DNA of 37,023 nt from a virus (lineage: Duplodnaviria; Heunggongvirae; Uroviricota; Caudoviricetes). The notes below the pieces were generated by a model. The model was not told the origin of the DNA. It worked only from the letters and a program-made list of their open reading frames with translations, and ran no database searches. Position 1 is the first letter of the stretch, and each line of letters opens with the position of its first letter. This document shows, in pieces, positions 1,690 to 2,021 of the stretch. Both the position numbers and the translations under genes were made by a program. The stretch lies in IMG/VR virus record IMGVR_UViG_2778261166_000007; one strand, written 5' to 3'.

Positions 1690-1704
1690 TGGTGTCCCCT
1701 GCAG
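1690..1704 (-). other. Putative prophage att core (attR): 15 nt identical to the reverse complement of the 3' end of tRNA-Arg argW
   Basis: TGGTGTCCCCTGCAG equals the reverse complement of CTGCAGGGGACACCA, the argW 3' end as I recall it; sits between the chromosomal cscB flank and the first phage gene. No tRNA body follows it, consistent with a duplicated core rather than the tRNA gene. Confidence 0.5.
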
Positions 1705-1777
1705 ACATCTACTTGGCGCGGCAGGGGATTGATTGGAATGGTATTTTTTAGATATGAGAAATATTTTACCCGCTATT

Positions 1778-1978
1778 TTACCCATTGGCGCGGCTTAAGA
1801 GCTTATTTTTGAATTCACAATGGTCACGATATAACCATCTTGCTCGCCCGTGGATAACTTTGGCTTTAGGCAGGTCTCCGGACTTAATCCGGTCATAGAT
1901 GAAGGTTTTACCGAAGCCAGTATCAGCCATGATGAATTTCAAATCAACCAGTGAATCAGGCTGTAGTTCGTGTTGCAT
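1778..1978 (-). CDS. torI: AlpA/TorI-family excisionase (recombination directionality factor), 66 aa
   Basis: 66-aa ORF; sequence matches my recollection of TorI of the K-12 KplE1/CPS-53 prophage (AlpA-family winged helix). Located directly inside the att core, as TorI is at attR of KplE1. Confidence 0.75.
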   Translation of the reverse strand: MQHELQPDSLVDLKFIMADTGFGKTFIYDRIKSGDLPKAKVIHGRARWLYRDHCEFKNKLLSRANG

Positions 1979-2021
1979 GAGTGCTATCTCCGAATAGGGA
2001 ATCGAACCTGCAAATCAGGCA

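Follow-up and report, generated by a model that had tools for sequence, protein, structure and literature searches.

A probable attR end of a KplE1/HK620/Sf6-type lambdoid prophage in argW, and a conserved T-loop-like motif upstream of torI as a candidate control site

We analyzed the junction between host and phage DNA in a 37,023-nucleotide stretch of tailed-phage DNA (IMG/VR record IMGVR_UViG_2778261166_000007; this whole stretch is referred to as the window). From the host side into the phage, the junction carries the following features.

1–1248, plus strand: host gene for a cscB-like oligosaccharide permease of the LacY family (Pfam LacY_symp, E = 1.3e-193); chromosomal flank.
1249–1689, no strand assigned: host intergenic DNA that normally follows argW (attB distal flank), from the empty attB site and the stop of phage homology at 1690.
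1690–1704, minus strand: attR core CTGCAGGGGACACCA, an exact match to the 15 nt at the argW 3' end; the 'attP core' of HK620 and Sf6 maps here.
1695–1728, no strand assigned: inverted repeat TCCCCTGC / GCAGGGGA, 18 nt apart, straddling the core edge (repeat search).
1762–1783, minus strand: direct repeat TATTTTACCC in two copies (reading GGGTAAAATA along the torI strand), putative P-arm IntS arm-type sites by homology.
1778–1978, minus strand: torI, recombination directionality factor (RDF, excisionase) of 66 aa, 100% identical to K-12 TorI.
1998–2013, minus strand: T-arm-like 16-mer TTGCAGGTTCGATTCC, with the conserved core GTTCGATT(C/T)CC; exact argW match.
2010–2022, minus strand: TTGCCTGATTTGC (TTGC-N5-TTGC), annotated in HK620 as the cII box of a putative pI promoter; Sf6 annotates 'pI'.
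2027–2046, minus strand: intrinsic terminator closing the early-left operon, the counterpart of HK022 tL4 (terminator scan).
2036–2203, minus strand: early-left open reading frame of 55 aa, common to CUS-3, HK022 and Stx phages (ORF list and BLAST; no Pfam match).

The argW sequence on which the initial annotation relied was confirmed: 75 nt long and carrying the annotation tRNA-Arg, it was found in 5426 of 5426 E. coli genomes. By exact match search, positions 1690–1704 (TGGTGTCCCCTGCAG) are the reverse complement of the last 15 nt of argW, just as had been claimed. Positions 1998–2013 (GGAATCGAACCTGCAA) are the reverse complement of the 16 nt preceding those 15, with one C shared; the match to this adjoining T-arm segment was therefore exact, but the coordinates first given for it (1997–2012) were one base off. 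When the window was shuffled 200 times, the longest argW match per shuffle was 9–14 nt, hence both the 15-mer and the 16-mer exceed chance, and a chance origin of the matches was ruled out. The 293 nt between the two blocks consist of torI and the P arm, in agreement with the ~290 bp containing torI that had been reported. Beyond these two short blocks, there was no further argW match of at least 10 nt in 1600–2100. ARAGORN found no tRNA near 1690–2013, the window's tRNAs being a phage tRNA-Asn and tRNA-Thr at 14456–14611, and no cloverleaf of a tRNA gene or pseudogene was detected over this interval by ARAGORN or Rfam.

Alignments with Sf6, HK620, Kapi1, HF4s and other phage genomes begin exactly at position 1690. 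Furthermore, the predicted empty attB site (the argW 3' end joined to the reverse complement of 1640–1689) was found as a contiguous sequence at 100% identity, and ~1,490 E. coli genome records cover at least 80% of the reconstructed sequence. Because phage homology starts there and the empty attB is contiguous in E. coli records, base 1690 is a genuine phage/host junction, in keeping with the boundary proposed initially, and we fixed the prophage boundary at 1689/1690 for annotation of the window. The accompanying proposal of the 15-mer as att core and of this end as attR was also supported, attR being named by the K-12 convention. The published KplE1 core is CTGCAGGGGACACCAT (PMC2951348), and the argW remnant at the attR core corresponds to the annotated argW pseudogene pawZ in K-12. 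The identity at attR is 15 nt here versus 16 nt in K-12, because the host base after CCA is G here and T in K-12. The inverted repeat at the core edge is kept in all lineages, and its CCCCTGC columns are conserved in an 11-lineage alignment. On the host side, the cscB-like gene is annotated in relatives as 'oligosaccharide MFS transporter'.

torI is transcribed toward the core and is the last phage gene at this end; RefSeq names it torI in relatives. Its product matched PDB 1Z4H ('Tor inhibition protein') over the full length (E = 6.6e-43), and no Pfam family, including Phage_AlpA (PF05930), matched the 66-aa protein at E <= 1e-3. Of the original description of this first phage gene as TorI/AlpA-type, the TorI part stands, and the AlpA part found no support in Pfam. 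As in most relatives, the core begins 274 nt after the torI ATG, with ~70 nt from the torI end to the core. The 'repeat_region attP' of HK620 (1441–1463) maps onto the two direct repeats, and the P-arm sequence GGGTAAAA...CGGGTAAAA is invariant across the aligned lineages. TAAA is common to IntS arm-type sites (PMC2951348), and the repeats at 1762–1783, whose unit GGGTAAAA contains TAAA, are likely to be P-arm sites of this type.

No recombinase is present in the RefSeq annotation of a 100%-identical stretch corresponding to 12100–37023, nor among the examined ORFs of 1–12100 (exo, bet, sieB, cI, O, P and similar; small ORFs were scanned in part), which agrees with the earlier statement that the window is devoid of an integrase. 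That statement came with a prediction of an integrase beside an intact argW at the opposite prophage end. In strain MEI1A-0323, the closest relative (100% identity over 12100–37023), intS is found 3.8–5.0 kb and an intact argW 5.1 kb beyond the window end, as predicted and as in KplE1, and attL reads ...TTGCAGGTTCGATTCCTGCAGGGGACACCAtttatcag, a KplE1-type attL sequence. Since the left 7.5 kb of MEI1A-0323 differ from the window, and no record covers 1–12100 at more than 94%, statements on the far end are made by proxy from this relative.

Collectively, we consider it probable (roughly 80%) that 1690–2046 is the attR end of a ~40-kb lambdoid prophage in argW, carrying an integration module of the KplE1/CPS-53–HK620–Sf6 group, and that the 16-mer is a fixed element at the edge of this module. 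The argW 3'-end core at the junction, the RDF gene (torI/hkaC/gene 18) in last place toward attR, and the arm-type repeats were all found. Modules of the KplE1/HK620/Sf6 IntS-TorI type are already described, and since this one belongs to a well-studied type, nothing new needs to be invoked for integration itself. IntS, coded at the other end beside the regenerated argW, would exchange strands within the 15–16-nt identity block CTGCAGGGGACACCA(T), and TorI, coded at this end, would steer the reaction toward excision. The P arm would comprise the two GGGTAAAA repeats at the torI 3' end and the ~70 nt up to the core. At the other edge, homology to HK022 and Stx phages ends at window positions 2016–2024, and lambda-type modules match the sequence only from ~2010 rightward; judging from these alignments, the early-left terminator marks a mosaic boundary of the torI-attP-int module.

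Next, we considered the 16-mer. Counted from the torI ATG, it spans 35–20 nt upstream, which places it after the early-left terminator and before the ribosome-binding site of torI, and it occupies the same position in K-12 KplE1, HK620, Sf6, S88 and MEI1A-0323, and in 75 of 80 IMG/VR contigs. The initial annotation had regarded two consecutive tRNA segments split by an excisionase gene as unusual; the arrangement is instead the regular one, and the identical layout in these phages and contigs indicates that the 16-mer belongs to the phage module rather than to this junction. The published attR substrate for recombination in vitro was amplified as a 135-bp PCR product beginning at the 3' end of torI (primers in PMC3509656), hence the 16-mer lies outside attR and is dispensable for recombination. 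In most non-E. coli lineages, the attP sequence abutting the core reads TTCGATGT-n-TGCAGGGG, in which a T-loop-like TTCGAT is already present. The 16-mer is therefore a second, separate T-arm-like element. With the module constant and attP having a T-loop-like segment of its own, the suggestion of a composite or tandem att, or of a longer ancestral tRNA copy, did not hold up.

Across Enterobacterales, flanks and synonymous sites diverge while the core of the element, GTTCGATT(C/T)CC, retains its place at about –29 relative to the start codon of torI; of 22 unique instances, 16 have GTTCGAT beginning at –28/–29 from the ATG. Seven diverged lineages, which were chosen for carrying the motif and thus bring an ascertainment bias to this comparison, share an invariant GGTTCGATT. 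In the same lineages, 14 of 66 torI third-codon positions (21%) are invariant, pairwise identity at third positions is ~57%, and DNA upstream of GGTTCGATT cannot be aligned; by our own arithmetic on these counts, nine GGTTCGATT sites would all be invariant at the third-position rate with a chance of ~0.21^9. Three lineages carry tandem copies of the motif (L116 and L118 with a 16-nt period, L120 with a 14-nt period). The T-stem half of the upstream element varies (CCAGG, ACAGG, ATAGG or GCCGG, sometimes without GG). We noted that the motif is missing in L015, L017, L018 and L165, and in the more distant L022–L028, despite otherwise similar modules, and that it is point-mutated in L069, L088, L067, L122 and L153. 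Mismatches to the motif are bimodal (0–2 or at least 4), with no decay series, and within E. coli the motif core is no less polymorphic than its flanks. From this pattern, we infer that selection has maintained the motif at this position, near –29 relative to the start codon of torI, in many lineages of Enterobacterales.

An alternative is that a piece of argW was captured once, is functionless, and persists by the recency and horizontal spread of the module. The 16/16 argW match in the E. coli lineage fits such a relic, as do the absence or deletion of the element in some lineages (L015 versus L014), the point mutants, and the lack of excess constraint within E. coli. However, an invariant GGTTCGATT against 21% invariant third positions, the bimodal mismatches, the fixed distance to the ATG and the retained tandem duplicates are all hard to reconcile with neutrality, and we consider this explanation unlikely. 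An ancestral attP might also have contained ~30 nt of the argW 3' end without interruption (TTGCAGGTTCGATTCCTGCAGGGGACACCA), into which a torI cassette was inserted later. The two segments are indeed contiguous in argW, with the one-C overlap, and have the same orientation, and the core-adjacent GTAGATGT of the E. coli lineage weakly resembles a T-loop. Nevertheless, attP in most other lineages is (A/G)TTCGATGT-n-TGCAGGGGACACCA, with the T-loop-like segment already beside the core, and an upstream element that varies in its T-stem half and duplicates or drops GG does not behave like a passive half-tRNA; this history is quite improbable. Less credible still, at the bottom of our scale, is that the 16-mer was left behind by a second element, or by a second integrase specificity of T-loop type, formerly in tandem at argW. 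This idea draws on the CUS-3 record (CP000711), which is bounded at both ends by the 16-mer, annotated as 'attL core / attR core', and on other genera, in which tandem islands at this site have P4-type integrase genes directly after the attR core. The left end of CUS-3, however, is TTGCAGGTTCGATTCC+TGCAGGGGACACCAtttatcag followed by an int gene of 1158 nt, the same length as HK620 int, and this int is preceded by P' arm sequence of the HK620/KplE1 type. Moreover, S88, whose left end is 100% identical to that of CUS-3, runs past the 16-mer through torI to the true core beside dsdC; the 16-mer is also in the HK620 and Sf6 records, which were deposited as circular phage genomes; and neither a second integrase nor a second set of arm sites near the junction was found in the window.

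Two further alternatives give the region a role in expression, and we hold both to be very improbable. In one, 2010–2022 belongs to pI, a CII-activated promoter for the integrase during lysogenization, and the likeness to a tRNA is incidental. HK620 annotates a 'promoter, phage integration' with 'cII protein' binding, Sf6 annotates 'pI', and in lambda-type modules the corresponding place behind this terminator is occupied by a true TTGC-N6-TTGC (TTGCgtgtaaTTGC). The spacing here, however, is N5, whereas the phage's own PRE box at 9028–9041 is TTGC-N6-TTGC and equals lambda's TTGCGTTTGTTTGC. TTGC-N5-TTGC occurs in the window at chance frequency (4 observed versus 2.6 expected), and other lineages keep GTTCGATT but not the TTGC repeats. 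No sigma-70-like hexamer pair was found between the terminator and torI. A promoter at this place would transcribe torI before intS, which would not favor integration, and a separate promoter for intS has been mapped within attL (PMC2951348). The cII-like box is thus probably not functional. Separately, hand-built –35/–10 candidates were dropped, as they would delete the Shine-Dalgarno (SD) sequence or give a leaderless mRNA. In the other alternative, the element acts in RNA, as a T-arm-like hairpin in the torI 5' leader that serves as a processing or modification signal or sequesters the SD. It would lie within the transcribed leader if torI were read through from the early-left operon, and a few lineages (L013 and L019, by inspection) can form such a hairpin. 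Rho-dependent termination limits read-through into torI. RNAalifold on eight lineages, however, returned no consensus pairs, the E. coli version is without the 3' half of the stem, the fold of the single sequence was unremarkable (z-score only –1.7), and there was no Rfam or ARAGORN match.

Instead, we postulate that the motif is a regulatory site bound by TorI or IntS. In its fuller form, which is possible but tentative, the T-loop-like element before torI would be an operator, a copy of the left half-site of attB that selection retains, in many prophages of Enterobacterales, at a set distance from the start codon of the RDF gene. TorI is a candidate binder since its mapped sites are GTTCG pentamers and variants (GTTCG, GATCG and GTCCG; PMC2951348), and the core-binding domain of IntS is a candidate since the motif equals the left half of attB, its core having the same sequence as the T-loop half. 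The motif contains GTTCG, in tandem in L116, L118 and L120, and TorI pentamers are usually tandem direct repeats on KplE1 attL. The lineage L137/L162 carries CAGTTCGATTTCC, and the L162 P' arm has four GTTCG pentamers and one GACCG. A position weight matrix made from the motif ranked I1 and I4 top in the K-12 P' arm, yet I-site scores were no better than those of shuffled sequence. Upon inspection of the I-sites, GTTCG is followed by C or T in 10 of 10, the motif always having A, and the conserved 3' half of the motif, ATTYCC, was not found in them. The KplE1 intasome binding sites were reportedly the subject of a 2010 paper in Virology. By-eye comparison with IHF, TorR-box, LexA-box and sigma-54 consensus sequences gave no fit. 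We also observed a second GTTCG-like pentamer 12 nt downstream of the motif (GTTCG in L011 and L020, GTCCG in L019), which overlaps the SD and is inseparable from the SD context.

At the candidate operator, RDF synthesis would be gated by TorI and/or IntS in response to their own abundance, possibly through an IntS bridge from the P-arm arm-type sites to the core-like site, with torI looped out. Feedback through this site would act on RDF expression, which is the deciding step for excision in KplE1-type modules. According to papers of the Ansaldi group, excision in this family is decided by control of RDF expression and the torI promoter region is uncharacterized; PtorI has been called 'non-characterized' (PMC2951348). 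If the operator reading is true, the motif would be the missing cis-element for the main uncharacterized control of excision in the KplE1 literature, and the argW T-loop in attL and attB would be a site for the same protein. Conservation across genera, fixed position and occasional tandem copies mark GTTCGATT(C/T)CC as a candidate control element before the excisionase gene. As GTTCGATTCC is short and mutable, the question of excision control is directly testable; if the motif proves inert, this is an ordinary prophage end.

The closest known system is KplE1 (CPS-53) of K-12. The comparison with its torI-attR region, suggested by the initial annotation, bore out the likeness: KplE1 has the same core, an identical TorI, the 16-mer at the same –35 to –20, and the same arm repeats and core distance. 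KplE1 employs IntS, TorI and IHF, with TorI sites on attL and autoregulation of intS (PMC2951348; PMC3509656), and by analogy this mechanism should apply to the present prophage end, TorI- and IntS-dependent excision having been demonstrated only for KplE1 (PMC2951348; PMC3509656). By contrast, KplE1 is a 10.2-kb remnant flanked by dsdC, whereas the prophage here is ~40 kb and is flanked by cscB, and the window shows its early, lysis, head and contractile-tail genes.

HK620 and Sf6 (P22-like podoviruses), as well as Kapi1, HF4s and N7, have an int-attP-xis module that is 96–98% identical from 1690 to ~2083, a stretch that takes in the 16-mer, the terminator and the annotated attP core. In the HK620/Sf6 group, xis and int flank attP and are therefore found at the two extremities of the integrated prophage (PMC8787464). 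Outside the module, the present prophage is unlike this group, with lambda-like early genes and a contractile-tail morphogenesis cluster; the module has thus been exchanged between phage types, with the terminator as the boundary. CUS-3 (E. coli K1 RS218) has the same integrase, argW site and early-left genes up to the 16-mer, and its record ends there, omitting torI and the real attR. In the CUS-3-like prophage of S88, the 16-mer is followed by torI and then CTGCAGGGGACACCAT. Since S88 continues past the 16-mer, the CUS-3 record appears to have been delimited wrongly at this repeat. Together with argW, the 16-mer makes up a second direct repeat that can mislead boundary calling, and apparently did so for this GenBank record. 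Lastly, the lambda int-xis-attP region has the same early-left terminator, TTGC repeats and excisionase gene order, and likewise combines a heterobivalent tyrosine integrase with a winged-helix RDF. In lambda, however, attP is located on the far side of int, xis is transcribed together with int, and the spacing of the cII box is N6. The present module has attP between the two genes, N5 spacing in the box and, ahead of the RDF gene, a T-loop-like motif that lambda lacks.

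We noted that two blocks on either side of torI match argW exactly. The 75-nt argW sequence, given correctly in the initial annotation, is annotated as tRNA-Arg and was found in 5426 of 5426 complete E. coli genomes searched. An exhaustive exact-match comparison bore out the assignment of 1690-1704 to the 3' terminal 15 nt of argW; the second match was also real, although its coordinates (1997-2012) had been off by one base. The longest argW match in 200 shuffles of the window was 9–14 nt.

Features of the torI region and of the CII-family gene
1690-1704, minus strand: att core TGGTGTCCCCTGCAG, reverse complement of the last 15 nt of argW
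1778-1978, minus strand: torI ORF, between both argW blocks; product identical to K-12 TorI
1998-2013, minus strand: 16-mer GGAATCGAACCTGCAA, reverse complement of the 16 argW nt preceding the last 15, with one C shared
9028-9041, minus strand: PRE CII box TTGCGTTTGTTTGC, lying where the CII-family gene (9019-9312) starts

TorI of the window matches PDB 1Z4H across its full length. The excisionase had been placed properly as TorI; the additional label "AlpA-type" is unsupported because a Pfam search returned zero matches at E ≤ 1e-3. Neither ARAGORN nor Rfam found a tRNA or tRNA-like RNA at the argW-block region.

Alignments of Sf6, HK620, Kapi1, HF4s, N7 and other free-phage or prophage records to the window begin exactly at 1690. 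Moreover, a model of the empty site, in which the reverse complement of window 1640-1689 follows the 3' end of argW, was found uninterrupted at 100% identity; ~1,490 E. coli records span 80% or more of it. Both results place 1-1689 in the chromosome (a cscB-like permease and the normal argW-distal flank) and the prophage start at 1690. The attR identity block comprises 15 nt here, as the host carries G instead of T after CCA. An inverted repeat, TCCCCTGC/GCAGGGGA (1695-1702/1721-1728), whose arms are separated by 18 nt, extends over the core edge and was conserved across all aligned lineages; its spacing is too wide for a core-type site pair around a 7-bp overlap. The spacer beside the core also holds one copy (1713-1722) of a perfect 10-nt direct repeat, TTGGCGCGGC, the other lying at the torI 3' end (1785-1794). 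This repeat probably reflects chance or local conversion, since K-12 does not preserve the first copy and reads gaagcagc there.

The far end was read from a relative, strain MEI1A-0323, which is 100% identical to window 12100-37023. In this proxy, intS lies 3.8–5.0 kb past the point matching the window end, as had been predicted for the integrase, and argW is found intact 5.1 kb past it (attL: ...TTGCAGGTTCGATTCCTGCAGGGGACACCAtttatcag...). The absence of a recombinase from the window also held: the identical 25 kb carry no annotated one, and none was among the ORFs checked in the first 12 kb. Should the unseen end match MEI1A-0323, the total prophage length would be ~40.5 kb. By contrast, the left 7.5 kb of the MEI1A-0323 prophage differ from the window, with a Rad52/ssb-type early-left region versus exo/bet in the window. 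For window 1-12100, the best coverage in the collection was at most 94%, at 98.2% identity. Either this prophage arose recently as a mosaic, or the collection searched lacks its genome. We also noted phage tRNA-Asn(GTT) and tRNA-Thr(TGT) genes at 14456-14611, with the Q antiterminator gene on one side and the lysis genes on the other; related prophages carry the pair too (locus L113).

The two argW blocks had been tentatively taken as an ancestral longer tRNA copy split by torI, or as a composite or tandem att. We aligned TorI loci from Enterobacter, Citrobacter, Serratia, Pantoea, Edwardsiella, Tatumella and Dryocola. At the majority of these loci, attP directly abutting the core reads (A/G)TTCGATGT-n-TGCAGGGGACACCA, a T-loop-like segment already in place; the E. 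coli flank has drifted to GTAGATGT. A split or longer tRNA copy is thereby made unlikely, and the element upstream of torI is a second, separate T-arm-like sequence. A tandem att could be read from the CUS-3 record (CP000711; L001 1-16, L004 1-40), which is bounded by the 16-mer, annotated "attL core/attR core", and lacks torI and a real attR. Its left end consists of the 16-mer and TGCAGGGGACACCAtttatcag, then HK620/KplE1-type P' arm sequence and an int gene equal in length to that of HK620. The prophage of E. coli S88 (L111 1660-2000) has a left end 100% identical to that of CUS-3 and continues past the 16-mer through torI to CTGCAGGGGACACCAT beside dsdC. It therefore looks as though the wrong direct repeat was used to delimit CUS-3, as checked in S88 rather than RS218 itself, which leaves the tandem reading unsupported. 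Separately, by eye from DNA (conserved ...KP..K.YKL.DGGGLYL...), a P4-type integrase gene apparently starts ~150–330 nt after the attR core in eight non-E. coli loci (L116, L120, L125, L134, L141, L147, L154 and L164), which suggests tandem arrays of integrative elements on the duplicated tRNA end.

Next, we asked whether part of the 16-mer, its core (hereafter the motif), is under selection, and four observations speak for this. Within 45 nt of the torI ATG, 42 of 46 distinct upstream sequences matched GGTTCGATTCC at best with 0–2 mismatches and the other four with at least 4; no decay series lies between these classes. In seven diverged lineages, chosen as motif-bearing, GGTTCGATT is invariant, as against only 14 of 66 torI third-codon positions, and sequence further upstream is unalignable. 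In 16 of 22 unique instances the first base of GTTCGAT lies at -28/-29 from the ATG. The T-stem half is variable (TGCAGG, TCCAGG, GACAGG, CATAGG, CGCCGG), two lineages read CAGTTCGATTTCC, lacking the second G, and three carry tandem copies, with a period of 16 nt (L116, L118) or 14 nt (L120). Other observations, besides the choice of motif-bearing lineages, speak against selection: within E. coli there was no excess constraint, the motif core being no less polymorphic than its flanks; point-mutated copies occur in L067, L069, L088, L122 and L153, and the motif is missing from L015, L017, L018, L165 and more distant homologues. That the motif is a neutral relic we consider unlikely, and other rivals less likely still. 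For L015 (Dryocola sp., 1470-1500), an indel accounts for the loss: the ~24-nt block GCTTCCAGGTTCGATTTCCAAACC holding the motif in Citrobacter sp. wls619 (L014 1450-1500) is absent, and the terminator tail passes straight into the SD. With TorI ~90% identical by eye, the two loci differ by a natural deletion (or insertion) usable for functional tests of the motif.

We tentatively favor the motif as a candidate DNA site for a module protein, modulating torI expression (probability roughly 0.35–0.45). No consensus RNA structure was predicted for the region across lineages, no Rfam family matched it, and no sigma-70-like promoter was detected between the terminator and torI. Menouni et al. reportedly found in 2013 that Rho limits read-through into torI. 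A cII-dependent pI at torI, annotated with a cII box in HK620 and Sf6, was rejected: it relies on TTGC-N5-TTGC, versus lambda's TTGC-N6-TTGC in the phage's own PRE box, and its repeats are not conserved elsewhere. The lambda-type module has TTGCgtgtaaTTGC after the same terminator, and the annotated box looks like a remnant common to that module. The PRE sequence at 9028-9041 is the canonical lambda PRE CII box; given its place where the CII-family gene starts, the phage has a lambda-type lysogeny establishment circuit.

As to which protein might bind, GTTCG, the pentamer of TorI sites I1-I5 as mapped on attL (PMC2951348), occurs within the motif, and a diverged phage contig (L162) has four GTTCG and one GACCG in its P' arm and CAGTTCGATTTCC before torI. 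Tandem direct repeats of the motif would fit a site of this RDF type. However, the base after GTTCG is a pyrimidine in all I-sites versus always A in the motif, ATTYCC is conserved in the motif and not common to the I-sites, and a motif-built PWM ranked I1 and I4 top, yet scored I-sites no better than shuffled sequence. Binding by the IntS core domain seems equally possible because the motif matches the left half of attB (T-loop) exactly and is similar to TTCGAT beside the core in attP. Excision control in this module family depends on RDF expression, and PtorI is stated to be uncharacterised (PMC2951348).

The 16-mer arrangement, initially regarded as unusual, is a constant of the module, present exactly and at the same position in HK620, Sf6, K-12, S88, MEI1A-0323 and 75 of 80 IMG/VR contigs encoding identical TorI; the HK620 and Sf6 records carrying it were deposited as circular phage genomes. 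Because the 135-bp attR of the published in vitro excision assay begins at the torI 3' end, where its inner primer lies (PMC3509656), the 16-mer is outside functional attR. Homology to HK022, Stx phages and lambda-type prophages ends at 2010-2024, in the terminator, and the 16-mer sits at the outer edge of the module. Many IMG/VR prophage contigs (L117, L122-L124, L126-L130 and many others; 801-nt loci) end 3 nt past the torI stop codon, their P arm and attR core having been removed by automated prophage trimming.

On the tRNA strand the order is early-left terminator, 16-mer, torI, two GGGTAAAA arm-type repeats and core. In this module family attP lies between the RDF and integrase genes, and both genes consequently land at opposite prophage ends (PMC2951348; PMC8787464). 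In K-12 the same 16-mer precedes the torI ATG by 35–20 nt and the same core follows that ATG by 274 nt, while HK620 and Sf6 have a 16-nt attP core annotated at the corresponding place (published core CTGCAGGGGACACCAT, PMC2951348). The 1690 junction was thus correctly read as attR, and this prophage end has the layout of the already known KplE1/CPS-53-HK620-Sf6 recombination module.
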